Assembly: GCA_003599275.1 (NCBI GenBank)
Contig: QZJG01000074.1
Location: 5,352 to 69,351 of the forward strand
Direction of reading: 5' to 3'
Source: Nitrospiraceae bacterium
Lineage (GTDB): Bacteria > Nitrospirota > Thermodesulfovibrionia > UBA6902
DNA length: 64,000 bases
Of this stretch, positions 1 to 51,147 are shown one piece after another. How positions within the stretch are numbered: the first letter of the stretch is position 1; every line of letters starts with the position of its first letter. Made by a program: the position numbers and the translations under genes. A model generated the notes under the pieces. That model saw nothing but the letters and a program-made list of their open reading frames with translations, searched no databases and was not told the DNA's origin.

Positions 1-184
1 AAGGATAGGCGCCTGTGCCTGAGTGCGGCGTGTGGCACATTGCGCATCTTTCAAGGTCTCCGTCTCCGCCTCTTGCCGGCATCTTGTTGACGTCATGAGG
101 GGAGTCTTTGATTACGGCCATGGCAATCGAAGCAGTTCCGACTGTCAGCAGTATCAGCAATAGTATGCTTAACATTTTCTTCAT
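1..184 (-). CDS. c-type cytochrome of the multihaem family, N-terminal fragment; the gene continues beyond the window start
   Basis: Reverse-strand ATG at 182-184 lies 8 nt after GGAGG. It translates to MKKMLSILLLILLTVGTASIAMAVIKDSPHDVNKMPARGGDGDLERCAMCHTPHSG: a signal peptide, then CxxCH followed by PH, as in doubled-CXXCH cytochromes. It is truncated and absent from the ORF track. Confidence 0.6.
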   Translation of the reverse strand, partial: MKKMLSILLLILLTVGTASIAMAVIKDSPHDVNKMPARGGDGDLERCAMCHTPHSGTGAYP

Positions 185-521
185 ATTGAATACCTCCTTA
201 TTTTTTTCATTTCTTTAAACCTCCCTGAAATTAACTCCTCTTGTGTTGTTGAAACCATAAGCTTTTCTTTTTCCTGTCACCTCCTTCCAAGTCATAATCC
301 GCGCCGCATCCGGGTGCTGCATAAAAACGGGCGTGAAGTCTTTTGATTTTGCATTACGGATTATTGTCTTTGTAATTTTCATGGTTAATATTTTGATTGC
401 GAAAGCATGCGCCTTCGAATAAATGTAATCTTTGATAAAGCAAAGGATATGCCACGTTATTTTTGCTTTACAACCCCTTAAAAACAATGGGAAATTTATG
501 GACACCTGCAGGAATGACACT

Positions 522-563: not shown

Positions 564-605
564 AATTCACGATAAAACAGTAACCCTAATAACGGCAGTT
601 CATTT

Positions 606-732
606 ACCACAGAGGCACAGAGACACAGAGAAAACAACGGATTCCGGAAGCTTTGGTGTTACTCCCCTAATGAAGAATTGCTTCCGGTCTTTTCTCTTAT
701 TTTTCAACTCAGTGTCTCAGTGTCTCTGTGGT
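606..732. repeat. nested palindromic MITE/REP-like element (CACAGAG-type arms)
   Basis: The outer 25-nt arms, ACCACAGAGGCACAGAGACACAGAG (606-630) and its complement at 708-732, match at 22/25. An inner perfect 8-bp inverted repeat is CCGGAAGC (644-651) / GCTTCCGG (680-687). ORF 553..735 is just a translation of this element. Confidence 0.6.
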
Positions 733-835
733 TAACTGCTCTTTACAGATTCAGCCTTGCCAACTCATTACTTTCCAATTGTATTAAGTCAGTTTCTTTG
801 CTTTTGTAAGTGACATCGGCAATGTGATATATTAA

Positions 836-851
836 TGGCATATTAATTGCT
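836..851 (+). promoter_or_regulatory. sigma-54 (-24/-12) promoter candidate for the REC-PilZ gene
   Basis: TGGCATattaaTTGCT has the exact GG-N10-GC spacing and matches the consensus TGGCAC-N5-TTGCW at all but one core base. It lies 58 nt upstream of the ATG at 909. Confidence 0.55.
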
Positions 852-908
852 TTATGTTTAAGCACATTAAATGGAGCCGTTTGGGCCTTTCTTTAAATAA
901 AAATTATT

Positions 909-1595
909 ATGGTCAAAAAAATCCTTATAGTCGATGATGAGGCCCTGATACTCAGCGGCCTGTCAAAGTGCCTCGCAAACAGCAACACCGTAATAAAAAC
1001 CGTTGCAAACGGAGCTGATGCGCTCAAGGAAATCAGCTTATGTCCTTACGACCTCTGCTTTTTAGACGTCCGTCTTCCGGACACCAACGGTCTTTACCTC
1101 ATGAAAAAGATAAAGAGATTCTCTTCTGAAACCAAGGTCGTTATCATGACCGCCCATCCTTTAAGTGATGATCTGAGGAAGGAGGTTGAGGACAACGCCT
1201 TCAATTTTATCAGCAAGCCCTTTGACCTTTCACATATAAAGGCGATCGCCGAGCTGGCTTTGGGTAAAGACGGAAGCCGCAATGAGAGCCGTGCGTCCTG
1301 CGATCAGGAATTCAAAGAAGGAAGGCTGTTTTTGAGAAAACCGCTGGAAAAGACCATTGATTATTTTGCCGGCGTATTTGAAGGCGGGGAGCTGAAGCTG
1401 TTGACGCTCACGGGAAGTGTCATCGACATAAGCGACGGCGGGATCGGACTCAAAACCGGTTACAACCTCAAACCCGGTTATATGATAAGGTTCTCGGGTG
1501 AGACAATCCCTTACGAGGTGGGGGTCGTCAAATGGAGCATGCCTGCGGGGGACAATTCTTTCAGGGCGGGAATCGAGTTCATGAGAAGGGCTTAA
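909..1595 (+). CDS. response-regulator receiver domain fused to a PilZ (c-di-GMP binding) domain
   Basis: The N-terminus is REC-like (KILIVDDE...DLCFLDVRLPD...KP). The C-terminus carries the PilZ signatures RLFLR (RxxxR) and DISDGG (DxSxxG). Confidence 0.85.
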   Translation: MVKKILIVDDEALILSGLSKCLANSNTVIKTVANGADALKEISLCPYDLCFLDVRLPDTNGLYLMKKIKRFSSETKVVIMTAHPLSDDLRKEVEDNAFNFISKPFDLSHIKAIAELALGKDGSRNESRASCDQEFKEGRLFLRKPLEKTIDYFAGVFEGGELKLLTLTGSVIDISDGGIGLKTGYNLKPGYMIRFSGETIPYEVGVVKWSMPAGDNSFRAGIEFMRRA

Positions 1596-1680
1596 AAAAC
1601 AGGGTGTAGGGAATTAGGGTATAGGGGGTAGTTTGCGGCAGTTCCTGCTCCCTATACCCTAATTCCCTACACCCTGTTTT
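1596..1680. terminator. 31-bp perfect-stem hairpin built from GGGTRTA heptamers; bidirectional terminator between convergent genes
   Basis: AAAACAGGGTGTAGGGAATTAGGGTATAGGG (1596-1626) is the exact reverse complement of 1650-1680. The loop is 23 nt, with an A-run on the left and a T-run on the right. It fills the gap between the stop at 1595 and the stop at 1679-1681. Confidence 0.8.
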
Positions 1681-1900
1681 ATGATAATGCCTTAATCAGC
1701 ATCAGAATAATTCCAATATTCATAGTTACAAGGACGCCCATCATCCATTTAATAAGTTTTGTATCACTTTCAATTCTTGCAAGACGTTCTTCCTGTCCCA
1801 ACTCTGCCATAACTTTGGCCGCTTCCTTTGCCTTTTCATCAGGCGCCCCTGCCGCCCTTAACGCCTCATAAACTTCAGCAATCATTTTACTCATTATCAT
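1679..1900 (-). CDS. small coiled-coil protein with a C-terminal TM helix (DUF1640-like)
   Basis: The ORF reads ...EVYEALRAAGAPDEKAKEAAKVMAEL...IKWMMGVLVTMNIGIILMLI. The start is probably the ATG at 1894, 7 nt after GGGGG. Confidence 0.55.
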   Translation of the reverse strand: MIMSKMIAEVYEALRAAGAPDEKAKEAAKVMAELGQEERLARIESDTKLIKWMMGVLVTMNIGIILMLIKALS

Positions 1901-1980
1901 GCCCCCGCTTTTTTTAATATTGTTACGCCCTACTGTTTAACCGTAATACAAAAAAAAATTATTGTCAATTTATAAAGGCA

Positions 1981-2083
1981 GCGTATAGCGGGTAGGGAAA
2001 AACGACAAAAAATAGCATGTCGGGAGCTGCTTTTTTGTTTTTATACACGCTACCCCCTATACCCTAATTTCCTACACCCTGTT
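1981..2083. repeat. degenerate heptamer-repeat arms (G-rich left, C-rich right) flanking a short hairpin plus T-run
   Basis: The left arm is GCGTATAGCGGGTAGGG (1981-1997). The right arm is ACACGCTACCCCCTATACCCTAATTTCCTACACCCTG (2045-2081). The right arm is nearly identical to the right arm of the 1596-1680 hairpin. Confidence 0.5.
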
Positions 2084-3460
2084 TTATTCTATTCCAAACT
2101 TCTTTATCTGATATCTGAATGAATCATAACTTATCCGGAGGAGCTTTGCGGCAAGGGACCTGTTATTCCCCGTCCTCTGGAGCGCCTGCATTATCAGGTC
2201 TTTCTCCAATTCATCGAGCGAGACGCCTTCATCGGGGAGGACGCACCTGTGACTTGACTGGCATGTGGTCCTTACCGTCTCCAGCGGCAATTGAGAAGGG
2301 TCAATTAATTCGGAATTTTCCAGCACGACAAGCCGTTCAATGACGTTTTTCAGTTCCCTGACGTTGCCCGGCCACGTATAAGAAAGGAGTATCTTTTCAG
2401 CCTCGGGGGAAAAGCTTGCGGGATTGTTCTTTTTGTATTCCGCCTTGAAGTGTGAAAGAAAATGCCGCGCAAGAAAGAGTATGTCCTCTTTCCTCTCCCT
2501 CAGTGGAAGTATGTGCAGGGAAAAGGTGTTCAGCCTGTAAAACAGGTCCAGCCTGAAGTCCCCTTTTGCAACAGCGTCCTGAAGGTCCCTGTTTGTGGTG
2601 GCTATGACGGTAACTTCTATCGGTATCTCTTTTTTCCCGCCGATGCGTCTTATGGTCCTTTCTTCAAGCACCCTCAATAGCTTGCTCTGCAGGCCCATCT
2701 TCATGTCTCCTATTTCATCAAGGAGAATGGAGCCGCTGTTTGCCAGCTCAAAGAGTCCTTTCTTTTCAGACTTTGCGTCCGTAAAGGCGCCCTTTTCATA
2801 GCCGAAGAGCTCGCTCTCGAGGAGTGTTTCCGGGAGGGCGGTACAGTTGATGGTTATGAAAGGCGCGCATCTCAGGGTACTGTCGCTGTACAGCAGCGAA
2901 TGAACAAAGCGCGCCATAAGCTCCTTGCCGGTCCCGCTTTCACCCGTGATAAGCACGGTCGAGACGCCGGCGAGGGCGATCTTTTCGGCCTTTTCCCTCA
3001 GCTCCCTTATGACCCTGGATTCCCCGACGAGGTCCTTCTTGAAGGTGTCCAGGTATACCTTCCTCAGGTAATCGACCTCATGCTTGAGACTCCCCTTTTC
3101 GAGGAGCTTCTCTATGACAATTTTTACCTCGTCGATATTGAGGGGCTTTGTAAGATAATCCGTGGCGCCGAGCTTCATGGCCTTTACCGCGGTCTCTGCA
3201 GAGTCGTCCGCCGTGAGCATGACAACCTCTGCGTCTATCTCCCTCTCCCTGATCTCCTGGAGGATATCCAGACCGTTGGAATCAGGGATGTTTACATCCA
3301 GCATTATTACGTCGGGAGACCAGGAGCGTATTTTCTCGATGACCTCGTCGGCTTCGGTCACCGCCATCACCTCATAGCCCTGTTTTTTCAGGGACCTTGA
3401 AATCATCGAGATGATAAGCTCCTCGTCGTCCAGAAGAAAAATTTTACCTTTGCTTTTCAT
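2084..3460 (-). CDS. sigma-54-dependent response regulator (NtrC/AtoC family: REC + AAA+ + HTH)
   Basis: REC N-terminus, Walker A GESGTGKE, a GAFTDA (GAFTGA-type) sigma-54 contact loop, and a C-terminal Fis-type HTH. Confidence 0.95.
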   Translation of the reverse strand: MKSKGKIFLLDDEELIISMISRSLKKQGYEVMAVTEADEVIEKIRSWSPDVIMLDVNIPDSNGLDILQEIREREIDAEVVMLTADDSAETAVKAMKLGATDYLTKPLNIDEVKIVIEKLLEKGSLKHEVDYLRKVYLDTFKKDLVGESRVIRELREKAEKIALAGVSTVLITGESGTGKELMARFVHSLLYSDSTLRCAPFITINCTALPETLLESELFGYEKGAFTDAKSEKKGLFELANSGSILLDEIGDMKMGLQSKLLRVLEERTIRRIGGKKEIPIEVTVIATTNRDLQDAVAKGDFRLDLFYRLNTFSLHILPLRERKEDILFLARHFLSHFKAEYKKNNPASFSPEAEKILLSYTWPGNVRELKNVIERLVVLENSELIDPSQLPLETVRTTCQSSHRCVLPDEGVSLDELEKDLIMQALQRTGNNRSLAAKLLRISYDSFRYQIKKFGIE

Positions 3461-3470
3461 ATTTAAAATC

Positions 3471-3540
3471 AGGTGTAAGGCAGAGGTGGTAGCAGGTAGT
3501 TTTTTGTTCCCTACACCCTACTCCCTCTGCCCTACACCCT
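3471..3540. repeat. imperfect heptamer-based hairpin between the kinase and regulator genes
   Basis: AGGTGTAAGGCAGAGGTGGTAGCAGGTAG (3471-3499) faces CCCTACACCCTACTCCCTCTGCCCTACACCCT (3509-3540). About 24 of 29 positions are complementary. Confidence 0.5.
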
Positions 3541-3544
3541 TTCC

Positions 3545-4978
3545 CTAACTTTCCTTTCTGACCGGCAAAACGATCGTGAATGTTGTCCCCTTGCCCTGTT
3601 CGCTTTCTATGCTTATGCCCCCCCCGTGCTCTTCTACAATGCGCCTTGTAATGGCCAGCCCCATTCCCGTGCCTTTGGCCTTGGTAGTGAAAAAAGGCTG
3701 AAAGATCTTCTTCACCAGCTCCCTGTTGATCCCTTTACCGGTGTCGCCTATCTCTATCCTGATCGCTTTTCCATCGGGGTTGCGTGACGTATTGATGGTC
3801 AGGGTACCTCCGCCGGACATGGCGTCAACCGCATTCAGCAGAAGATTAAGAAACACCTGCTGCAACTGCATCTGGTCGGCCATTATGACCGGCAGCCTGC
3901 TGTCGAAATTTTTAACTACCGCGATCGCCTTTAAGCCGTTGCCGGATGAAGCCGACGGGATTTTGGTTGAAAACGTCATACATATGTCGATGATGTTGTT
4001 GACATTCGTTGGCGTAAGCTGGGGGACAGGCGGTTTTGCAAAATTAAGGAGCCCCTTTAACAGGGCGTCTATCCGTCTTACCTCGCCGATGACCTGCGTC
4101 AAGACAGTCCTGTCTTCCGCTGAAAGGCTGGAATCCTCCGAGAGGACTTCCATCGACACTTTGATGCCTGCCAGCGGGTTTTTGATTTCATGAGCAAGCC
4201 CGGTCGCTATCTCGCCGCACACCCTCAACTGCTCCGTCCTCTGCATGTTGAGTATCTGCTGTTTCAGAGAGCTTGCCATCTCATTAAAGGAAGCCGCGAC
4301 CTCGCCGAACTCGTCTTTCAGCGAAGCGACCCTGTAATCCAGGTCGCCTGCCTTCAATCTCCGCGTCGCATCGAGGATCGTATTGAGCGGCTCGGTGATC
4401 GCCTTTATAAAGATCAGGGACAGGACCGTCGCAAGGATGGGGCCGAGGGCCAGCACGATAAAAAGCGTAGACTTTGTGTCCGCTATCTTTTGCAGCGCCG
4501 ATCTGGTTTTTTCATCAAGCCTGCTGCTCGTCATTGTTATCATGCTGTTGACTTCCGCTATAAGGTCTTCACCGATCCTGAAGGCTTTTTCCGCTTTTGC
4601 GTGCAAAGCGCTGAAGTTGTCGCCCACGATCAGGATCCCGGTCACGGATTCCTTGTATTCATGTATATGACTTCTCAAGTCAACAAGCTTCTTCATCACT
4701 ATTTCATTGTGGTGGCAGTTAAAGCAGGTGTCCGCCACTTTCGCCATGTTGTTTATGGTCGTCAATATGGTTTTATTGTCCCGGTCTCTTGATTTGAGGT
4801 CTGTCTGTATCCTTGCAATATGTATCAGCAGATGTTCCCGCAGTATTTCAATCTGATGGAGTTTAATAAGGTTGTCAAGCCTGGATGTGGTGGTCTCGAT
4901 GGTGAAGATTACATAGACAGTCGCCAAAAAGAAGATCAGGGTAAAGAGCGCCAGTCCTGTGATGATTTTTTTCTTCAT
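3545..4978 (-). CDS. sensor histidine kinase (2 TM, periplasmic domain with CxxCH, HAMP, HisKA, HATPase)
   Basis: TM1 covers residues 7-27. CFNCH sits at residues 85-89 (nt 4712-4726). TM2 is at about residues 172-195, followed by a HAMP domain. The H-box is HEIKNPL and the ATPase carries a G-box (GTGMGL). Confidence 0.9.
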   Translation of the reverse strand: MKKKIITGLALFTLIFFLATVYVIFTIETTTSRLDNLIKLHQIEILREHLLIHIARIQTDLKSRDRDNKTILTTINNMAKVADTCFNCHHNEIVMKKLVDLRSHIHEYKESVTGILIVGDNFSALHAKAEKAFRIGEDLIAEVNSMITMTSSRLDEKTRSALQKIADTKSTLFIVLALGPILATVLSLIFIKAITEPLNTILDATRRLKAGDLDYRVASLKDEFGEVAASFNEMASSLKQQILNMQRTEQLRVCGEIATGLAHEIKNPLAGIKVSMEVLSEDSSLSAEDRTVLTQVIGEVRRIDALLKGLLNFAKPPVPQLTPTNVNNIIDICMTFSTKIPSASSGNGLKAIAVVKNFDSRLPVIMADQMQLQQVFLNLLLNAVDAMSGGGTLTINTSRNPDGKAIRIEIGDTGKGINRELVKKIFQPFFTTKAKGTGMGLAITRRIVEEHGGGISIESEQGKGTTFTIVLPVRKES

Positions 4979-5063
4979 CTATTATAAAGAGTTCTTCAGA
5001 AAGAATAGGATTACCGTTATAATAATAATCTCAGGCCCATTTCTGCAAGGGAAAAAAACGCGG

Positions 5064-5079
5064 GGCAAATTAAATGCCT
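5064..5079. promoter_or_regulatory. sigma-54-type -24/-12 element in the divergent intergenic region; orientation ambiguous
   Basis: The minus strand reads AGGCATttaatTTGCC. The plus strand reads GGGCAAattaaATGCC. Both keep GG-N10-GC because the core is palindromic, and the minus strand fits the consensus slightly better. Confidence 0.35.
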
Positions 5080-5113
5080 GATACAAAACAGGACGCAAGA
5101 CGAATGTTGTATA

Positions 5114-5122
5114 TGCTAAAAT
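5114..5122 (+). promoter_or_regulatory. extended -10 (TGcTAAAAT) sigma-70 promoter candidate for the 5158 operon
   Basis: TGCTAAAAT lies 36 nt upstream of the ATG at 5158. No good -35 element is present. Confidence 0.3.
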
Positions 5123-5157
5123 ATCAGGGTCTGAGGTTTGGAGCCAGGGGGTAATTG

Positions 5158-5727
5158 ATGTTGAACGTGATAAACAGGCGTTTCAGGACCGGCTTTATTG
5201 CCCTGATATCGTTGACGCTGATATCGGCGTTATTAATAAGCGCGATCGCTTTTTATTCTTATTCCGACAAAGAGCTGGGCGGGACTTACGGACAGAAAAT
5301 CGATACTATTTCCGAATTCAGGACGACCCTTGTAAAAGACTCCCTGCTGATATTCATACCGCCCGCCGTTATGGCCGTAATCTTTGTAATAACAGCCATT
5401 GTTCTGTATACCCACAGGATCGTCGGACCTCTGGTAAGGATAAAGGCCGTTACCCGGCAAATATCCGAAGGCGATTTCAACATACTTGTCAAGTTAAGAG
5501 AAAAAGACGCCATAATGCCCCTTGCGGATGCGCTGAATAAATTGTCCTCGGGATACAGAGAAAGATTTTCCATACTGGGCAAGGCCCTTGATGAAATGTC
5601 CAGGGACGCAGCGGAGATGCGGCAGGCCGTTGAAAGAGGAGATATGGAAGCAGCCGAAGCCAAAAGAGAAGAGTTAGGGAAAAAGGCCGGAGAGATAAAA
5701 ACCATGCTTTCCGGGATCAGGTTATGA
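5158..5727 (+). CDS. two-TM membrane protein with a HAMP domain and coiled-coil tail (no output domain)
   Basis: The ATG at 5158 lies 7 nt after GGGGG. Two hydrophobic helices are followed by a HAMP-like stretch, GPLVRIKAVTRQISEGDFNILVKLREKD. The stop overlaps the next start (ATGA). Confidence 0.7.
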   Translation: MLNVINRRFRTGFIALISLTLISALLISAIAFYSYSDKELGGTYGQKIDTISEFRTTLVKDSLLIFIPPAVMAVIFVITAIVLYTHRIVGPLVRIKAVTRQISEGDFNILVKLREKDAIMPLADALNKLSSGYRERFSILGKALDEMSRDAAEMRQAVERGDMEAAEAKREELGKKAGEIKTMLSGIRL

Positions 5728-6515
5728 AAAAAAGATTAATTGTCCCTCTGCTTCTTGTCATGGCCTCCATTATTATCGTGTACGCCGTGTTGGACAATCC
5801 GCACGACTTCTCCATGGAAGACTGCCAGCTCTGCCATCTGAATTACGAACAGGACCCTAAAAGACTGGCCATGCCCGTATCGGACCTCTGCAAAAGATGT
5901 CATGAGCAGATAAATGCGAAATCATCGCACCCTGTAAATATTTATCCGTCAAAGGCGGCAGTCCCTCCGGACCTGCCGTTGAGAAACGGGATGATAGCTT
6001 GCAGCACATGCCACGATATTCACAAAGAGAATTCCAATGTCTTCGGAGAAAAGACCTTCTTCCTGAGAAGACCGTATACGGGAAGGAGTTTTTGTCTCTC
6101 GTGTCATACTCAGGGGATAGATTTGACGAAGCATTCGGACACAATCGACACCGCCCACATGGGGAGCAGATTCAAAGTTACAGATCAGTCCGAGCCGCTC
6201 GATTCCATTTCCAAAGAATGCATCAGTTGCCACGGCGGCGTACTCGGCAAGAATGCGGTGTTCGGACTCGGCAGCGGAGTATGGACCCACGATGATCCAA
6301 CCCATTCTCATCCGATAGGCGTCGATTACGAAGAGAGCAGGACGGAAAGGAAGGACGCAAAATTAAAACCCATGTCCATGATCGACAAAAGGATAATATT
6401 TTTTGACGGGAAGATAGGGTGCGGGTCGTGTCATAACGTGTATTCTGAGTCTCAAATGTCCCTCGTGATGAGCAACAAGGGCAGCAGTCTCTGTCTTGCG
6501 TGTCATGAATTATAA
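5724..6515 (+). CDS. heptahaem c-type cytochrome with N-terminal signal/anchor
   Basis: Seven CxxCH motifs: CQLCH, CKRCH, CSTCH, CLSCH, CISCH, CGSCH and CLACH. The N-terminus is hydrophobic. Confidence 0.9.
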   Translation: MKKRLIVPLLLVMASIIIVYAVLDNPHDFSMEDCQLCHLNYEQDPKRLAMPVSDLCKRCHEQINAKSSHPVNIYPSKAAVPPDLPLRNGMIACSTCHDIHKENSNVFGEKTFFLRRPYTGRSFCLSCHTQGIDLTKHSDTIDTAHMGSRFKVTDQSEPLDSISKECISCHGGVLGKNAVFGLGSGVWTHDDPTHSHPIGVDYEESRTERKDAKLKPMSMIDKRIIFFDGKIGCGSCHNVYSESQMSLVMSNKGSSLCLACHEL

Positions 6516-6518
6516 AAG

Positions 6519-6583
6519 ACAGGGGGTAGTGTGTAGGGGGTAGTTTTTTCCGCTCCCTACCCCCTATGCCCTACACCCTAATT
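6519..6583. repeat. imperfect heptamer-based hairpin after the cytochrome gene
   Basis: ACAGGGGGTAGTGTGTAGGGGGTAG (6519-6543) faces CTCCCTACCCCCTATGCCCTACACCCTAATT (6553-6583), with a T-run in the loop. Confidence 0.5.
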
Positions 6584-6596
6584 TACGGGAGGAGTT

Positions 6597-7190
6597 ATGG
6601 AGCATAAGAGGAAACGGTACATCACAGATAAGGTTTATCAGTGGAGGCTGGCGTTACGGATCATATCCATCTGTTCTGTTTACCTGCTTTTGAACCTTGT
6701 ATTGTTCAATTATCTGTCCTACAGAAAAATCGAGTTTCTGAGATGGAAAATGAACCTGCCGTTTGAGACTACGGGTGAAATAGTCGAGCCTTACCTCATA
6801 TCCTCTACAGCGATAACAATGTCCCTTGCCGTGGCCACGCTTGTCATATACATAATCTTCATCCTCAATAAAACGTCAGGGCCGGTGTACAGACTGAAAG
6901 CGGACATGGAAAAAGCGGCAGACGGCGATCTTTCGACAAACATTTACCTGCGCAGCGGCGATGATTTCAAGGAAACGGCAAAAGACTGCAACAACATGGT
7001 ATTGTCACTGAGAGGCAGGTTTGCCCGTATAAAAGAAGGCTTCTCCTCAGCGGAAAAGTCCCTGGAAAAAATAGAGTATGTAAAAGACAGGCCGGAGATT
7101 GCCGCCAAAGAATGCAAAGCCCTTGCAGATACAATAGAGGCGTTAAAGAAAGAAATTTCATCCGTAAAGGTGGAAAATGCTGCAGGCTGA
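6597..7190 (+). CDS. second two-TM HAMP/coiled-coil membrane protein (paralogue of 5158..5727)
   Basis: The architecture matches 5158..5727 and the HAMP segment is similar (GPVYRLKADMEKAADGDLSTNIYLRSGDD). It overlaps the GspE-like start by 14 nt. Confidence 0.7.
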   Translation: MEHKRKRYITDKVYQWRLALRIISICSVYLLLNLVLFNYLSYRKIEFLRWKMNLPFETTGEIVEPYLISSTAITMSLAVATLVIYIIFILNKTSGPVYRLKADMEKAADGDLSTNIYLRSGDDFKETAKDCNNMVLSLRGRFARIKEGFSSAEKSLEKIEYVKDRPEIAAKECKALADTIEALKKEISSVKVENAAG

Positions 7191-8724
7191 CAAAAGGACC
7201 CCTGAAAAAAATCGCCGTCATCTGAAGGCCGAAGACCTGCCGAACGTCCCTCTTGTGATGAATGAGATATCGTCCCGTTTCATACGTGAAAACATGATCG
7301 TGCCCATAGATTTCAGGAACAATATTTTAAAGGTGGTAATGGCAAATCCCGGGGACAAAGCGACCATTGACGCCGTCAGGGTGGCGGCAGCGGCAGACGT
7401 CGAGGTATATTCAACCGGCCCGGACATCCTGGAAGAGTACATATCAAAGTTCTACGGGCAGGAGCCGCAGAATATAAACAAAATCATTGAGGACATCGGC
7501 GGAGAAGGTTTTGAATTCCTGAAAGACGATGAAGAAGACGTAGGACACCTCAAGGACCTCGCGTCAGAGGCCCCTATAATAAAACTCGTCAACATGCTCA
7601 TATCGAGGTCTGTCGAAAGCCGGGCCAGCGACATCCACATAGAGCCTTTTGAAGACGAGCTGAAGATCAGATACCGCATAGACGGCGTTTTATATGAAGT
7701 CGAATCGATACCCAAAAAACTGCAGGCGGCCATTATCTCGAGGATAAAGATAATGGCAAAGCTCAACATCGCTGAAAGGAGGCTGCCGCAGGACGGACGC
7801 ATCAAGCTCAAGGTCGCCGAGAGGGAGATAGACATGAGGGTCTCCACAATACCGGTGCTTTACGGTGAAAGCGTGGTAATGAGAATACTCAGCAAAGAAG
7901 GCATTGTCGTAGACCTGGACCTCCTCGGGTTTTCATCGCAGATGCTGTCCGCATTCAATCAGCTCATCAAAAAACCGAACGGCATCATACTGGTCACCGG
8001 GCCTACCGGCAGCGGAAAGACGACGACCCTTTACGGCGCCCTTGATAAAATAAATTCCCCGGACAGGAAGATCATCACCGTCGAAGACCCGATAGAGTAT
8101 CAGCTCAATGGAATAAACCAGATACAGATGAAACCGCAGATAGGCTTAAACTTTGCAACAACCCTCAGACACGTAGTCCGGCAGGACCCTGATATAATAA
8201 TGATCGGCGAAATCAGGGACCTCGAGACCGCCGAGATCGCCATACAGTCCGCCCTGACCGGACACCTTGTGTTTTCGACATTGCATACAAACGACGCCCC
8301 AAGCGCGATAACGAGACTTATCGACATGGGGCTTGAGAACTTTCTTCTTTCCTCCACCATCAGGGGAATACTGGCCCAGAGGCTTGTAAGGGTCATCTGC
8401 CCCGTGTGCAAAGAAATCGACACGTCAACGGCGGACCGGGAAGAGCTCGGGGTTTTGGGCATCGGCAGTGACGCGCCCCTTTATAAAGGCAGGGGCTGTG
8501 AGAAATGCACCCATACCGGTTATTACGGCAGGTCCGGGATATTCGAGCTGCTCGTCGTGACGGATGAAATACGAAGACTTGTCCTGAAGGACGCCGACTC
8601 CGGACAGATAAGGGAAGCGGCCAGAAAAGACGGCATGAAGACCCTGATGGAAGACGGCGCTGAAAAAATACGGTCGGGGGTCACAACCCTGAGCGAAATT
8701 TTGAAAGTAACGCAGGAGGCTTAA
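7177..8724 (+). CDS. gspE: type II secretion / type IV pilus assembly ATPase (GspE/PilB family)
   Basis: A T2SSE N-terminal domain, Walker A GPTGSGKTT, Asp and His boxes, and a C-terminal CPVC...CEKC zinc motif. The RBS is AAGGTGGA. Confidence 0.95.
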   Translation: MLQADKRTPEKNRRHLKAEDLPNVPLVMNEISSRFIRENMIVPIDFRNNILKVVMANPGDKATIDAVRVAAAADVEVYSTGPDILEEYISKFYGQEPQNINKIIEDIGGEGFEFLKDDEEDVGHLKDLASEAPIIKLVNMLISRSVESRASDIHIEPFEDELKIRYRIDGVLYEVESIPKKLQAAIISRIKIMAKLNIAERRLPQDGRIKLKVAEREIDMRVSTIPVLYGESVVMRILSKEGIVVDLDLLGFSSQMLSAFNQLIKKPNGIILVTGPTGSGKTTTLYGALDKINSPDRKIITVEDPIEYQLNGINQIQMKPQIGLNFATTLRHVVRQDPDIIMIGEIRDLETAEIAIQSALTGHLVFSTLHTNDAPSAITRLIDMGLENFLLSSTIRGILAQRLVRVICPVCKEIDTSTADREELGVLGIGSDAPLYKGRGCEKCTHTGYYGRSGIFELLVVTDEIRRLVLKDADSGQIREAARKDGMKTLMEDGAEKIRSGVTTLSEILKVTQEA

Positions 8725-8725
8725 A

Positions 8726-9922
8726 TTGGCTATCTTCTCGTACAAGGCCGCCTCCGCCGACGGGACTGTCGTAGAGGGTGTTCTGGAGGCTGCGGACGAG
8801 AGGGCAGCGGTCGAGAGGATCAAAAATTCCGGGGTCATCCTCCTGAAGATCGCCGCGCAGGGGGAAAAGACCGGGAAGAAATTACTGTTCAAAAAAACAT
8901 CAGGCGATGCGCTCCTTACGTTCACAACAGAGCTTTCCATCCTTTTGGCCGCAGGACTTCCCCTGGACAGGTCGCTGAATATACTCTCCGGAATTTCTGA
9001 AAGCGCAGAGATGAAAGGCGTGATCAGGACCATCCTGAAATCCATCCGGGAAGGCAGCTCGTTTTCCGAGGCCCTGCACAAGCATCCGAAAATATTCCCG
9101 AGGATTTATATAAACATAATAAAAGCCGGTGAGTCGGGCGGCGTGCTCAATGTGGTGCTGGACAAGCTGAATGAATTTCTTGAAACCACAAGAGAACTGA
9201 AAGAACATGTCATCTCTTCAATGATCTACCCTGTGATACTCCTTGCTACAGGCGGCATATCGATACTTATCCTCCTGACCTTTATGCTCCCGAAATTCAG
9301 CAAAATATTTTCGGAGCTCGGCGCATCGCTCCCCCTTTCCACACAAATGCTTCTCGCGTTCAGCAATGCAGTCAAGGCGTATTGGTGGTTCTTTCTGCTG
9401 TCCGCGGTCATAGGGGTAATGGCCTTCAGGAAATACATAGCCACCGAAAACGGCAGATACCGGTTTGATTCTTTTAAATTAAAGGTAATGGGAGACGTAA
9501 TAAGAAAACTCGAGACCGCGAGGTTCTGCAGGACGTTAGGCACCCTGCTGAAAAGCGGCGTGCCCATGCTCCAGGCGCTGAACAATGCAAAAGACGTTGT
9601 AAACAACCAGGCCATAGCCACAGCCATTGCTTCCGTGTCCAAAGGAGTCAAGGAAGGCAAAGGCATTACGGCTCCGTTGTCCGAAGCCGGGGTCCTGCCG
9701 CCGCTGGCCCTCTCGATGATACAGGTAGGCGAAGAAACGGGCCAGCTTGACAATATGCTGATCACGGTCGCAGTTACCTATGAAAAGAACCTGAAGGTCG
9801 CGATAAAGAGATTTATCAGCCTGCTTGAGCCTGCCATGATACTCGGAATGGGCCTGATAATAGGCTTTATAGTCCTCTCAATGCTCATGGGAATATTCAC
9901 CATATCGGAAGTACCGTTTTAG
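8726..9922 (+). CDS. gspF: type II secretion / type IV pilus inner-membrane platform protein (GspF/PilC family)
   Basis: TTG start 8 nt after GGAGG. The protein has the duplicated T2SSF domain architecture with three TM segments. The N-terminus is typical (MAIFSYKAASADG). Confidence 0.95.
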   Translation: MAIFSYKAASADGTVVEGVLEAADERAAVERIKNSGVILLKIAAQGEKTGKKLLFKKTSGDALLTFTTELSILLAAGLPLDRSLNILSGISESAEMKGVIRTILKSIREGSSFSEALHKHPKIFPRIYINIIKAGESGGVLNVVLDKLNEFLETTRELKEHVISSMIYPVILLATGGISILILLTFMLPKFSKIFSELGASLPLSTQMLLAFSNAVKAYWWFFLLSAVIGVMAFRKYIATENGRYRFDSFKLKVMGDVIRKLETARFCRTLGTLLKSGVPMLQALNNAKDVVNNQAIATAIASVSKGVKEGKGITAPLSEAGVLPPLALSMIQVGEETGQLDNMLITVAVTYEKNLKVAIKRFISLLEPAMILGMGLIIGFIVLSMLMGIFTISEVPF

Positions 9923-9926
9923 GAAA

Positions 9927-10073
9927 GCGTGTAGCGTATAGCGTGTAGCGTGTAGCGTGTATAAAAAAATTATGCGGAATGCAAGATTCATCCCGAATAT
10001 GTCGAGACCAATTTCAAATTTTAAATTTAAAAAAGACTTACCCTCTACACGCTACACGCTATACGCTACACGC
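9927..10073. repeat. 29-bp perfect-stem hairpin of GCGTRTA heptamers enclosing the start region of the first pseudopilin gene
   Basis: GCGTGTAGCGTATAGCGTGTAGCGTGTAG (9927-9955) is the exact reverse complement of 10045-10073. The 89-nt A/T-rich loop contains all candidate start codons. More CTACACG/CTACCCG heptamers follow up to 10140. Confidence 0.8.
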
Positions 10074-10574
10074 TTTCCCCTGCCCTCTACACGCTACACG
10101 CTCTTCCCTACCCGCTACCCGCTACACGCTACACGCTCTTCCCTGCGAAAGCAGGGCTTCACTCTGCTCGAGCTCATAATCGTAATGCTCATCGCCTCAC
10201 TCGTACTCGGACTTTCCACCGTTGTTTTTACCAATATGCTGCCGTCGGCAAGACTCGACGCAACGGTCAGGAAAATATCGGCCACCGTAAGACACGCCAG
10301 ATCGCTTGCAAAAGTCAACGGCGAAACGGAGAACGTCATAATAGACCTCGATGCAAGGAGGTTCGGGATGGAAGGCAGAGATTACGAAGCCATCCCCTCC
10401 GACATAAATATTAAAGTGCTGGACCCGCTGTCCGGAGAAACGAGCAGCGGAAAGTATACCCTGACTGTTAAGGCAACGGGCGGTATCGAAGGTGGGACCA
10501 TAGTAGTCTGGAGCAAAAAAAAGACCGTCCATATAGATATTGACCCGATTGTCGGAGCAGTGGTGGTTAAGTAA
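9957..10574 (+). CDS. GspH-like minor pseudopilin (prepilin-type G|FTLLE cleavage/methylation site); start uncertain
   Basis: RKQG|FTLLELIIVMLIASLVLGL is followed by a GspH-like body (ATVRKISATVRHARSLA). The only in-frame starts are GTG 9957, ATG 9972 and ATG 9999. Confidence 0.75.
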   Translation: MYKKIMRNARFIPNMSRPISNFKFKKDLPSTRYTLYATRFPLPSTRYTLFPTRYPLHATRSSLRKQGFTLLELIIVMLIASLVLGLSTVVFTNMLPSARLDATVRKISATVRHARSLAKVNGETENVIIDLDARRFGMEGRDYEAIPSDINIKVLDPLSGETSSGKYTLTVKATGGIEGGTIVVWSKKKTVHIDIDPIVGAVVVK

Positions 10575-10590
10575 GCAGCAAGGACAAGCA

Positions 10591-11079
10591 ATGCTGAATT
10601 TAACAACTTCAATAATTTCAAATCTCATATTTCAAATTTTAAATTTTAAATTTCAAAAAGACTTACCCCCTACTCCCTACTCTCTTGCCCCTTGCCCCTC
10701 CCGCAGGGCCGGCTTCACTCTGCTTGAAATCCTCGTGGCCCTTTCAATAACGGGCATTGCGCTTATAGTCGTGCTGCAGCTTTTTTCAGCCAATTTAAAG
10801 AATATCTCCGTCTCCGAAGACTATGTCTTCGCAGTCTCGAAAGCAGAGGCCCGGATGAGAGAGCTGCTGGAAGGTCAAAATCTCCAGGAGGGTTCATGGC
10901 GCGAGACCACGGCTGACGGATACAGGGTGGACATTGCCATAAAGAATTCTCAAAAGGAGAGGACGCAAAATCTGAAAGTGTCTCTCATGGAGATCGACCT
11001 GACAATACATTGGACAAACGCGGCAAAAGAGAGGTCGTTCACATTAAAATCAGCGAAGCTGGTAAAGAAAAGGGTGTAA
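10591..11079 (+). CDS. prepilin-type minor pseudopilin (GspI-like, tentative)
   Basis: The ATG at 10591 lies 6 nt after AAGGA. The cleavage site is SRRAG|FTLLEILVALSITGIALIVV. Confidence 0.7.
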   Translation: MLNLTTSIISNLIFQILNFKFQKDLPPTPYSLAPCPSRRAGFTLLEILVALSITGIALIVVLQLFSANLKNISVSEDYVFAVSKAEARMRELLEGQNLQEGSWRETTADGYRVDIAIKNSQKERTQNLKVSLMEIDLTIHWTNAAKERSFTLKSAKLVKKRV

Positions 11080-11089
11080 GGCAGAGACA

Positions 11090-11752
11090 ATGAACAATTC
11101 AAGATTCAAAATTCAAGATTCAAAATCTGATAACATTACTAATCTCAAATCCTCCTGCCCCCTACACCCTGCATCAAAAGGTTTCACCCTGCTTGAATTG
11201 ATGATCTCCATCACTATCCTCGGGGTCATTGTCCTGATCGTAAGCAGCGCCATGAAGGTGAGTTTCCGCTCTGTGAGCGCCGGGGAGAAAAAAATGGAGT
11301 CCCTCGAAAGGGTCCGGGCTTCCTTGAAAATTGTGGACTCGCAAATCCAGTCTTCAATCCCGCTCACTTACCTGACAGGCAGCGACCTTAAATACTATTT
11401 TTCCGGGCATAAGAGGTCTCTCAGGCTTTCAACAAATTATTCCCTGTGGAATGAAAACAGGGGATATGTCGTAGTTGCCTACAGAATTGTATCAGACGAT
11501 CACGGGAAAAAGTCTTTATATGCGTCTGAAAACATTGTAGGCGTCAAAGGTGAAAAAGAGGTGAAACTCCTCGACGGTCTTGACGAGATTTATTTTGAAT
11601 ACTTCTATACGGACCCGACGAAAACAGAAGGGGCATGGATAGAGGAATGGAAGTTTTTCAATTTTCCTGAAAAGATAAGATTAAACATAGTTGACGGGAC
11701 AAAGCGTTTTACCCTCGTCATGCCGTTGAGGGTAAGAAGTCTCGGCTTATAA
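11090..11752 (+). CDS. prepilin-type minor pseudopilin (GspJ-like, tentative)
   Basis: The only in-frame start is ATG 11090. The cleavage site is ASKG|FTLLELMISITILGVIVLIV. Confidence 0.7.
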   Translation: MNNSRFKIQDSKSDNITNLKSSCPLHPASKGFTLLELMISITILGVIVLIVSSAMKVSFRSVSAGEKKMESLERVRASLKIVDSQIQSSIPLTYLTGSDLKYYFSGHKRSLRLSTNYSLWNENRGYVVVAYRIVSDDHGKKSLYASENIVGVKGEKEVKLLDGLDEIYFEYFYTDPTKTEGAWIEEWKFFNFPEKIRLNIVDGTKRFTLVMPLRVRSLGL

Positions 11753-50029: not shown

Positions 50030-50344
50030 ATGATAGACAGAATAAGAAGAAGCCTGAACACGGGACTGGACCGCGTCAAATGGTTCGCGACATTCCTTGC
50101 CGAAAGGACCAAAGCCGAGACGTCAATTGCAAAGCTCCTTTATCAGAGCAGCAAGCTTGAGGACAGGATAGACGATCTCTACCGGGACATCGGCAGGCGG
50201 GTCATGGAGCTAAACGAAAAAGGAGAGAAATCCGTATTGAAGGATTTTGTCGTTCAGCAGGCGCTCGGTGAAATAAAGCACATGAGAGAGGCCTCGGATG
50301 AATTCAGAAATCAGGCACGGGACCTCAGCAAGCTGCCGGAATGA
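50030..50344 (+). CDS. 104-aa coiled-coil protein, unknown function
   Basis: The ATG at 50030 follows GAGGAGGG. The stop overlaps the prepilin peptidase start (ATGA). Confidence 0.55.
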   Translation: MIDRIRRSLNTGLDRVKWFATFLAERTKAETSIAKLLYQSSKLEDRIDDLYRDIGRRVMELNEKGEKSVLKDFVVQQALGEIKHMREASDEFRNQARDLSKLPE

Positions 50345-51147
50345 CGCTCTATATTTTCACCTTTGCGCTGGGCGCGGTAATAGGCTCTTTCCTTAATGTC
50401 TGCATTTACCGCATGCCAAGAGGCCTGTCTGTAGTAAGACCTTCCTCGCGATGCCCCTCATGCGGCGCCCCGATAAAATTTTACGACAACATCCCGCTAT
50501 TAAGTTACATGATGCTTATGGGAAGGTGCAGGACGTGCAGGGCCAAACTGTCCGCAAGATATCCCCTCGTGGAATTCCTCAATGCCGCTTTATACGTCAT
50601 CGTGCTTAACAGGTCCGGTTTTGACTCACCACTGGTTTTATTGGTCTACTGCATATTTGTTTCAGCTCTTGTGGTGATTTTCTTTATAGACATCGACTAT
50701 CAGATAATACCCGACGTCATAACGCTGCCCGGTATCGTCCTTGCCGTTGCCCTCGGCTCCACGATACTTCCCGATCCGTTTTTCCGGACGGACTTGCTTG
50801 GATGGAAATCATCTCTTGCCGGCTTTTTGGCAGGGGGAGGTTCTTTTTATCTTATAGCGGTGCTTGGGAAAGCGATACTGAAAAAAGACGCGATGGGCGG
50901 AGGCGACATAAAAATGATGGCAATGGTTGGCGGGCTATTGGGATGGAAGGGAGTAATCCTGACGACTTTCATGGGAAGCCTGTTCGGCTCGGTCATCGGG
51001 GTCGCTCTTATCCTGTTAAAAGGGAGAGAGTGGGGATCAAGAATACCCTTCGGCCCATATCTTGCCGTCGGCGCTTTGACAAGTCTCTTCTGGGGGCAGG
51101 ACATTATGATGTGGTATCTCCCGGATGGGGCTATAATTCTTCCCTGA
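50341..51147 (+). CDS. prepilin peptidase / N-methyltransferase (A24 family, PilD/GspO)
   Basis: CPSCGAPIKFYDNIPLLSY, the GGGDIKMMA motif, and multiple TM helices. Confidence 0.95.
   Translation: MTLYIFTFALGAVIGSFLNVCIYRMPRGLSVVRPSSRCPSCGAPIKFYDNIPLLSYMMLMGRCRTCRAKLSARYPLVEFLNAALYVIVLNRSGFDSPLVLLVYCIFVSALVVIFFIDIDYQIIPDVITLPGIVLAVALGSTILPDPFFRTDLLGWKSSLAGFLAGGGSFYLIAVLGKAILKKDAMGGGDIKMMAMVGGLLGWKGVILTTFMGSLFGSVIGVALILLKGREWGSRIPFGPYLAVGALTSLFWGQDIMMWYLPDGAIILP

Follow-up and report, generated by a model that had tools for sequence, protein, structure and literature searches.

Several bacterial sensors work with a separate periplasmic partner, as TorT/TorS (with feedback from TorC) and LuxP/LuxQ do, and in the pair formed by sensory rhodopsin II and HtrII the transducer is a two-transmembrane (2-TM) HAMP protein. 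In extracellular electron transfer, the minimal OmcE cluster of the Desulfuromonadia comprises two multihaem cytochromes, two beta-propeller lipoproteins, OmcE and a large beta-barrel protein, and is located near resB/ccsB (10.1101/2025.10.22.684050). In Shewanella, the surface display of MtrC and OmcA depends on the type II secretion system (T2SS), and for Geobacter the atypical OxpG T2SS has been described (PMC1974784). How OmcS and OmcE filaments reach the outside of the cell is under debate, with a pilus- or T2SS-based "pump" set against a porin-based model (preprint). Since both the regulation and the export of multihaem nanowires and surface cytochromes are still under debate, loci in which such genes meet are of relevance. 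Here, a 64-kb stretch of DNA (the window) from the fragmented metagenome-assembled genome (MAG) of an uncultured Nitrospiraceae bacterium was analyzed, in which the gene for a heptahaem c-type cytochrome, flanked by genes for two small HAMP proteins, is followed directly by gspE-F-H-I-J. The region was interpreted as a mosaic of three modules brought together in one Nitrospirota lineage rather than as a single new machine, and a probability of roughly 60% was assigned to this reading.

RESULTS

Gene content of the region

The eight co-directional open reading frames (ORFs) of the original prediction were recovered at 5155-11752, together with their three junctions of -4 nt (5724/5727), -14 nt (7177/7190) and +1 nt (8724/8726). 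The first three genes are referred to below as the trio or cassette. The eight genes, and the only other gene in the window related to a T2SS or a type IV pilus, are as follows.

5155..5727, plus strand: HAMP1, a small 2-TM stand-alone HAMP protein (Pfam HAMP 24.3 bits against a cut-off of 25, E = 3.9e-5)
5724..6515, plus strand: heptahaem c-type cytochrome with an N-terminal signal peptide or anchor (exactly 7 CxxCH)
6597..7190, plus strand: HAMP2, a paralogue of HAMP1 (no Pfam match; full-length hhalign alignment with HAMP1, probability 99.8%, E = 7e-28)
7177..8724, plus strand: GspE secretion ATPase (TIGR02533 677.6 against a cut-off of 630.25; T2SSE 477.7 bits)
8726..9922, plus strand: GspF platform protein (Pfam T2SSF 203 bits, two repeats; TIGR02120 384, under the cut-off of 424)
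9957..10574, plus strand: GspH-like minor pseudopilin, mature part from 10155, start codon uncertain (N_methyl; XpsH and GspH under cut-off)
10540..11079, plus strand: GspI-like minor pseudopilin, mature part from 10711 (TIGR01707 39.9 against a cut-off of 44.35)
11090..11752, plus strand: GspJ-like minor pseudopilin, mature part from 11180 (N_methyl; homologues with PF11612 T2SSJ)
50341..51147, plus strand: prepilin peptidase (A24) (A24_N_bact 116, Peptidase_A24 72 bits)

The cytochrome, predicted to be heptahaem, was found to carry exactly seven CxxCH motifs and is identical (100%) to locus tag C4560_14460. The proposed pair of HAMP proteins was upheld: HAMP1 scores just under the Pfam threshold and HAMP2 has no Pfam match, and the paralogy of the two was substantiated by the hhalign probability of 99.8%. 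The assignments of GspE, GspF and three prepilin-type proteins with the motif G|FTLLE were supported by hidden Markov model (HMM) and motif searches; the motif is present in all of the GspH-, GspI- and GspJ-like proteins, all of which score under the curated HMM cut-offs. Downstream of gspJ lies mutS2, at 12355. The GspE N-terminus was considered as a cyclic di-GMP (c-di-GMP)-binding MshEN domain, and this was rejected since on inspection its sequence resembles the N1 domain of ordinary T2SS ATPases.

That the 64 kb lack a secretin and GspG, K, L and M, as reported, was borne out by three kinds of search. No match within the window was obtained by tblastn with GspD, G, K, L and M of Nitrospirota; no prepilin motif was present in the 64 kb beyond the three, all in the H/I/J-like genes; and no secretin domain was detected by Pfam in the large remaining ORFs of the window. 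The prepilin peptidase at 50341-51147 is, as had been stated, the sole one and far removed from the other genes.

From such data it had been proposed that GspE, F, H, I and J form a minimal pseudopilus machine, without secretin, GspG, GspL or GspM, in which the HAMP proteins serve as platform partners and which is dedicated to the heptahaem cytochrome. In its favour are the lack of gspD, G, K, L and M in the 64 kb, the 14-nt overlap of HAMP2 and gspE, the recurrence of the gene order in six other species-level genomes, and the non-T2SS gene or mutS2 that follows gspJ in the sub-lineage of the window, L001, L005 and L006 (L-numbers denote individual loci of relatives or metagenome loci). In light of the comparisons presented below, it was judged very improbable.

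The trio is a conserved cassette of its own

Relatives were collected in a scan of one genome per GTDB species, which yielded 203 cytochrome relatives; the best 80 were examined together with four context loci. Flanking HAMP1-like and HAMP2-like genes were called by tblastn with the window proteins, and the neighbouring genes of the trio were identified by clustering over +/-6 kb and by targeted searches. Both HAMP genes flank the cytochrome gene in at least 65 of the 80 loci, and most of the exceptions are at contig ends or at the sensitivity limit. The trio loci are mostly from Nitrospirota, and were also found in Desulfobulbia, one Nitrospinae MAG and Aminicenantes. A 4-nt overlap of the HAMP1 and cytochrome genes was observed in 47 of 71 loci, which suggests that the two are translationally coupled. 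A gspE gene is located within 2.5 kb downstream of the trio in only 6 of the 70 loci with at least 3 kb of downstream sequence. The co-occurrence of the HAMP proteins with GspE and GspF that the original prediction would entail was therefore not found, the HAMP genes going with the cytochrome instead. The HAMP-cytochrome-HAMP trio is a separate, conserved and widespread cassette, usually situated in extracellular-electron-transfer gene clusters, and it almost never adjoins secretion genes.

The usual neighbours of the cassette are cytochrome and regulatory genes. OmcE-like cytochromes occur near the trio in 17 of the 80 loci and NHL beta-propeller genes in 18, mostly upstream and co-directional. 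This gene set is similar to the published composition of the OmcE cluster. After HAMP2, at least 22 of 70 loci have a gene for a further, small cytochrome. Among the 80 loci, 23 encode a histidine kinase near the trio and 22 an NtrC-type regulator, often convergent after HAMP2 or divergent upstream. Unannotated proteins of 530-664 amino acids (aa) were present in the OmcE/NHL clusters of at least 10 loci; our guess is that they correspond to the beta-barrel protein of OmcE clusters. In the Aminicenantes locus L003, a 216-aa cytochrome is a full-length OmcE homologue (9yuq_N, E = 1.8e-31; 7tfs_A, E = 1.2e-27), and ResB and a Cytochrom_C_asm protein are encoded next to it. In L079 the trio is followed by a PilB/MshE-like ATPase whose sequence places it in another system. 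Full-text literature searches turned up no account of the cassette or of its tie to OmcE-type clusters, a paper on a selenocytochrome of sulfur respiration having been considered and found unrelated to it; the cassette appears to be undescribed so far.

Proteins of the cassette

For the cytochrome, 202 homologues of 255-290 aa were found. The seven CxxCH motifs and seven further (distal) histidines are invariant or nearly so in 38 homologues, and all seven haems appear to be bis-histidine (bis-His) coordinated. The cytochrome is similar to OmcE-type subunits only in its last 100 aa (E = 1e-9). An AlphaFold2 (AF2) model of the cytochrome (pLDDT 77.5) gave no significant fold match in Foldseek, OmcE being returned at E = 2.6.

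The HAMP proteins consist of two TM helices separated by a loop of about 28 residues, the HAMP domain, and about 60 helical residues after it. The motifs (H/K)RI(A/S)GPL..R, GDL, R..D and LA..LN are conserved in 69 and 68 family members, in agreement with the HAMP signature of a conserved Pro, GDL and DE..LA..N.M. In the AF2 model of HAMP2, four helices were distinguished in the order TM1, TM2-AS1, connector, AS2 and C-terminal helix, and the top-ranked Foldseek matches were to HAMP domains (Aer2, Af1503) with E around 1, which is not significant. A sequence search of the PDB with HAMP1 returned chance coiled-coil matches only. The small HAMP family was resolved into 114 clusters (50% identity, E<=1e-10). 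Lengths were judged on the 150 best matches, which with few exceptions have about 165-220 aa. The database label "methyl-accepting chemotaxis protein" (MCP) for these proteins, HAMP2 included, is unjustified because of this length and because no output domain is present. The binding of haem b by the HAMP TM helices was considered and rejected, since these contain no conserved histidines.

With these features, the cassette might be thought to function as an electron relay from the inner membrane to OmcE-type cytochromes, the 2-TM proteins anchoring or organizing it or coupling it to the quinone pool. Seven apparently bis-His haems are typical of an electron-transfer cytochrome, the cassette lies downstream of OmcE-like/NHL clusters and beside further multihaem cytochromes, and the HAMP proteins are devoid of an output domain. 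However, what is kept in the 2-TM proteins is the HAMP signature, with no conserved histidine or cofactor pattern in the TM helices, and we know of no HAMP domains other than those of signal transducers. The frequent presence of kinase/NtrC pairs next to the cassette also argues for signalling, and a relay function, the main rival of the reading preferred here, was considered unlikely, if worth keeping in mind.

The secretion genes belong to an ordinary T2SS

The secretion proteins of the window were compared with those of complete T2SS loci. Identities to L085 are 75% for GspE, 63% for GspF, 41% for GspH, 48% for GspI and 54% for GspJ. The order gspE-F-H-I-J-K-L-M was found in L085, L086 and L087, with gspD and gspG also present a few kb further on in L085, and the order gspG-D-E-F-H-I-J-K-L-M plus one more gene was found in eight metagenome loci recovered with a GspD alignment. 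L114 and L122 contain the same T2SS genes with gspD on the opposite strand, as is gspG in L122. Since gspE-F-H-I-J of the window are orthologous to the L085 set in the same order, they were deduced to be genes 3-7 of the standard operon. The trio was absent from all of about 13 complete T2SS loci.

These data bear directly on the minimal pseudopilus. About 70 loci have the trio and no T2SS gene, and about 13 have the T2SS and no trio. The supposedly dedicated E, F, H, I and J genes are close orthologues of those of complete, ordinary systems, and in relatives of the window gspD (L008, L009) and gspL and gspM (L008) adjoin them. Given the independence of the trio and the orthology of the T2SS genes, the idea of a reduced machine was not supported. 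A 64-kb window of a fragmented MAG cannot prove genomic absence. The role of the HAMP proteins as platform partners was examined through the N1 domain of GspE, which in canonical systems binds GspL. In the window, this domain shares 53-64% identity with its counterparts in genomes that have gspL next to it, and 62% with those of L008/L009. The lack of extra divergence gives no sign of adaptation to a new partner, and the proposed replacement of the usual partners by HAMP proteins was not supported.

Fusion of the cassette to gspE in one lineage

The order HAMP1-cytochrome-HAMP2-gspE-F recurs in six further species-level genomes (L001/L007, L005, L006, L008, L009 and L023), with H-I-J following where the contig extends, so the synteny on which the original prediction was staked is real. 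The fusion of trio and gspE was confined to loci whose cytochrome shares at least 64% identity with that of the window, and the spacing of HAMP2 and gspE in the fused loci ranges from a 14-nt overlap up to about 80 nt. Directly after gspJ, a gspD secretin gene is present in L008 and L009, followed in L008 by gspM and gspL in convergent orientation, while L001, L005 and L006 have a gene for a 274-aa sulfotransferase-like protein at this position. The occurrence of gspD, gspL and gspM beside gspJ in relatives indicates that the T2SS locus is rearranged, not reduced, in this lineage. The T2SS part is ordinary, and its fusion to the cassette at gspE is a variant specific to this lineage; those T2SS genes that are missing here probably reside elsewhere in the genome.

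Selection was assessed from the ratio of nonsynonymous to synonymous substitution rates (dN/dS) in comparisons with L005, L006, L001 and L008. Values were 0.04-0.10 for gspE and gspF and 0.06-0.22 for both gspH/I/J and the trio, with dS for these comparisons ranging from about 0.7 to saturation. Ratios of 0.04-0.22 at such high dS imply that all eight genes are maintained by purifying selection and that their order has survived a long divergence.

T2SS genes were also located near the trio outside the fused lineage. In L035 (Nitrospirota), gspG-E-F-H-I-J lie on the opposite strand, 5.7 kb from the trio, with an orthologue of the REC-PilZ gene described below between them; the cytochrome is 39% and GspE 70-72% identical to those of the window, and an OmcE-like and an NHL gene are found downstream. 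In L034 (Desulfobulbia), a gspG homologue ends 17 nt before HAMP1. Such two or three arrangements beyond the fused lineage are suggestive and too few to be called selection.

The juxtaposition of cassette and secretion genes could also be meaningless, with an operon rearrangement having left a T2SS fragment behind the cassette, or with the fragment in decay. The T2SS is indeed rearranged, in that gspD stands behind gspJ in L008/L009 and K, L and M are not beside gspJ in four genomes, and repeats have invaded the spacers and the pseudopilin leaders. Decay is countered by the dN/dS of 0.04-0.22 with dS of about 0.7 or more. A mere accident of position is countered by the tight HAMP2-gspE junction, which is kept in all fused loci having it on the contig, with synonymous sites nearly saturated, and by the T2SS genes near other copies of the trio (L035, L034) in different arrangements. 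Overall, this explanation was deemed improbable.

Regulatory genes and promoter-like sites

The left end of the window contains the following features.

2..184, minus strand: OmcE-family c-type cytochrome gene, 5' end only, cut by the window edge (translation MKKMLSILLL...AMAVIKDSPHD...CAMCHTPH)
440..454, minus strand: sigma-54-type -24/-12 element TGGCATATCCTTTGC, about 255 nt upstream of the OmcE-like gene (1 mismatch)
603..735, no strand: palindrome of octamer repeats between the two divergent sigma-54-type promoters (28-nt arms, 86% complementary)
836..850, plus strand: sigma-54-type -24/-12 element TGGCATATTAATTGC, 58 nt upstream of the REC-PilZ gene (1 mismatch to TGGCAC-N5-TTGC)
909..1595, plus strand: response-regulator receiver plus PilZ-like domain, REC-PilZ (Response_reg 90 bits)
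2084..3460, minus strand: NtrC-type sigma-54 enhancer-binding response regulator (REC 94.9, Sigma54_activat 211.2, HTH_8 47.2 bits; AAA_lid_14)
3545..4978, minus strand: two-TM sensor histidine kinase with a periplasmic CxxCH, then HAMP, HisKA and HATPase_c (Pfam, sequence)
4995..5023, plus strand: sigma-70-like promoter candidate TTCAGA-17-TATAAT upstream of HAMP1 (10/12 matches)

The 61-aa N-terminus of the left-edge cytochrome, a gene absent from the original prediction and only in this part inside the window, matched the OmcE-type nanowire subunit 9yuq_N (E = 4.8e-8), the AMAVIKD.xHD and CxxCHTPH stretches included, and Geobacter sulfurreducens OmcE (7tfs_A) at E = 0.013. The divergent kinase with a periplasmic CxxCH and the NtrC-type activator, both part of the original prediction, were verified from the domain set and from CFNCH at residue 85, which is the single such motif of the kinase periplasmic domain and is retained in the closer orthologues L006, L010 and L032. 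Apart from this haem site, the regulatory pair is ordinary. For the REC-PilZ protein said to lie behind a near-consensus promoter, the receiver domain and the one-mismatch site stood up, and the C-terminal part reached only 17.6 bits with Pfam PilZ, under the cut-off of 22.5, with the RxxxR (RLFLR) and DxSxxG (DISDGG) motifs present.

The minus-strand site reads TGGCATATCCTTTGCTTTAT from 454 to 440 and the plus-strand site at 836-850 reads TGGCATATTAATTGCTTTAT; the extended form TGGCATAT-N3-TTGCTTTAT is common to both. The OmcE-like and REC-PilZ genes are separated by a 380-nt spacer that contains both of these near-identical sites, each directed at its own flanking gene. Sites with at most one mismatch number six in total on both strands of the 64 kb, and from this rate the presence of two correctly oriented sites in one spacer was estimated to be unlikely by chance. 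Comparable sites were found in L003 before the OmcE homologue, a REC gene, an NHL gene and the trio itself, in L039 before the REC-PilZ orthologue, and in L057 and L060 before large OmcE-containing cytochromes. The 603-735 palindrome may be an enhancer site or a repeat element. A sigma-54 promoter ahead of HAMP1 in the window was considered and rejected, as the sole GG/GC pair there has the wrong spacing. No Rfam family, c-di-GMP and cGAMP riboswitches included, was found in the whole window or in a permissive run on 1-12.5 kb.

The sigma-54 contact loop of the NtrC-type regulator (residues ~232-237) reads GAFTDA, the usual form being GAFTGA. A 73-aa ORF at 1679-1900 on the minus strand, between REC-PilZ and NtrC, gave a T2SSF match at chance level (E = 0.021). 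Among the eight metagenome loci with a gspG-to-M operon, five (L123-L126 and L147) have a co-directional histidine kinase/NtrC-type pair directly before the complete operon, the regulator being 37-39% identical to the NtrC of the window. In this group, the T2SS may often be under the control of sigma-54.

Repeats and pseudopilin leaders

Three repeat elements adjoin the genes under study.

1596..1680, no strand: hairpin of heptamer repeats directly after the REC-PilZ stop codon (36-nt arms, 94% complementary)
6521..6579, no strand: heptamer-repeat hairpin in the cytochrome/HAMP2 spacer (inverted-repeat search)
9922..10137, no strand: repeat resembling a miniature inverted-repeat transposable element (MITE), between gspF and gspH and running into the gspH frame (40-nt arms, 95% complementary, 13x CTACACG)

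Inverted repeats of at least 20 nt were found five times in the first 12.4 kb and once, as a weak case, in the other 51.6 kb. The cytochrome/HAMP2 and gspF/gspH spacers of L005, L006 and L008 contain the same kind of repeat element. Heptamer/octamer palindromes are present in almost every intergenic spacer of the locus, with further ones at 3509-3540, 10614-10699 and 11096-11126, and are laid out as a G-rich arm (GGGTGTA, GCGTGTA), an AT-rich center (ATTCAAA-type repeats) and a C-rich arm. A small ORF is inserted in the cytochrome/HAMP2 spacer of L009 (10795-11280), flanked by GGGGAGAGGG-type palindromes. The palindromes look like members of a MITE- or repetitive extragenic palindrome (REP)-type family, or like the short tandemly repeated repetitive (STRR) heptamers of cyanobacteria, and they possibly act on mRNA stability or attenuation. 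Rfam matches of the 1596-1680 palindrome to miRNA hairpins were dismissed as spurious.

In the window, one has to go back 52-66, 40 and 30 codons from G|FTLLE to meet an in-frame start codon (9957-10154, 10591-10710 and 11090-11179). The starts of the pseudopilin ORFs are uncertain because these upstream stretches are translated heptamer repeats. Pseudopilin frames are open over 20-60 codons ahead of the motif in the window and likewise in L005, L006, L008, L009, L035, L086, L087 and L106. The same leader stretch can precede different genes in different genomes: the GspI leader of the window resembles that of GspH in L006, and its GspJ leader resembles those of GspH in L005 and GspJ in L087. 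Either these systems put up with prepilin leaders of unusual length, or translation truly begins at non-canonical codons.

DISCUSSION

A proposed three-module scheme

The scheme put forward here for the mosaic starts from the observed anatomy, modularity, orthology, conservation and purifying selection of the genes. Module 1 is the haem-c kinase with the NtrC-type activator, near the two divergent sigma-54-type promoters of the REC-PilZ and OmcE-family genes. Module 2 is the cassette of a 2-TM HAMP, a heptahaem and a second 2-TM HAMP protein, which would act as a redox-sensing accessory. The cytochrome is proposed as the periplasmic redox co-sensor of the HAMP proteins because their own periplasmic loops are only about 28 residues long. 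The two paralogues may form a HAMP bundle through which the cytoplasmic side is informed of the redox state of the electron-transfer chain in the periplasm, and the signal would probably enter the kinase/NtrC circuit and reach the sigma-54 promoters of OmcE-like cytochromes and REC-PilZ, the presumed targets of NtrC. Module 3, gspE-F-H-I-J, is the middle of the ordinary T2SS operon, placed directly behind the cassette and probably co-transcribed with it from about 5000, where the sigma-70-type promoter candidate lies. That the secretion genes are co-expressed with the cytochrome module in this lineage is plausible because the order recurs in six genomes and all eight genes are under purifying selection, and the likely physiological sense would be to express the secretion machine together with the extracellular-electron-transfer programme. 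The data are suggestive of a link between cassette and T2SS that is specific to this lineage.

Several observations weigh against this reading. No kinase, MCP, cyclase or phosphatase output domain was detected in HAMP1 or HAMP2 with Pfam and NCBIfam, and the sensing role of the cassette is deduced from domain content. In the window, no sigma-54 site precedes the trio on the plus strand, and among the 23 neighbouring kinases of trio loci just four have the haem motif. A single transcript could be interrupted or attenuated by the large hairpins in the cytochrome/HAMP2 and gspF/gspH spacers. The metagenome scan with the GspD alignment gave 70 loci, all at most 58% identical over the full length and none from the source metagenome. 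Finally, the T2SS genes near the trio in L035 and L034 hint at more than accidental juxtaposition.

In another explanation, the T2SS of this Thermodesulfovibrionia lineage has been recruited to export OmcE-type filaments or their surface partners, with the HAMP-heptahaem-HAMP complex coupling periplasmic redox state directly to how the GspE/F motor works or is assembled. It has to be entertained because there are three trio-T2SS arrangements, an OmcE-like gene lies nearby and the HAMP proteins have no identified output, and we regard it as quite improbable. If true, it would constitute genomic evidence for the disputed pseudopilus export of nanowires.

Under the preferred mosaic reading, a cassette wired to T2SS core genes becomes a candidate, open to testing, for the part that senses redox state in the extracellular-electron-transfer apparatus, and the fused lineage offers a natural experiment on the involvement of the T2SS. 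What had been taken for a secretin-less minimal pseudopilus is most likely an ordinary T2SS that has been split, and a misleading lead is thereby removed.

Comparison with known systems

The canonical T2SS of other Nitrospirota (L085-L087, L106-L108, L122-L126 and L147) shares with the present locus the order gspE-F-H-I-J, and a prepilin peptidase is also present here. It differs in that the HAMP-cytochrome-HAMP cassette stands here in place of the upstream gspG and gspD, gspK, L and M are not in the window, and the pseudopilin frames of the window carry repeat-derived stretches of 30-60 codons before the cleavage site. The T2SS-cytochrome link of Shewanella and Geobacter is genetic and phenotypic, with genes that are not in one operon, whereas the link observed here is one of gene linkage in one lineage.

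With the OmcE clusters, the locus has in common that relatives of the cassette are found directly downstream of OmcE-like, NHL and multihaem genes, and that an OmcE-like gene starts 5 kb away in the window. It departs from the published description of such clusters, in which neither HAMP proteins nor a T2SS are mentioned (10.1101/2025.10.22.684050). Compared to the OmcE subunit (about 200-230 aa, four CxxCH), the cytochrome of the window has seven haems and is similar only in its C-terminal third.

Compared to the transducers of co-sensor systems, the HAMP proteins of the window end about 60 residues after the HAMP domain, without a kinase or MCP domain, and are two paralogues. The resemblance to those systems, which is seen here at the level of genes, lies in a 2-TM HAMP protein with a negligible periplasmic loop, encoded beside a separate extracytoplasmic cofactor protein and probably translationally coupled to it.

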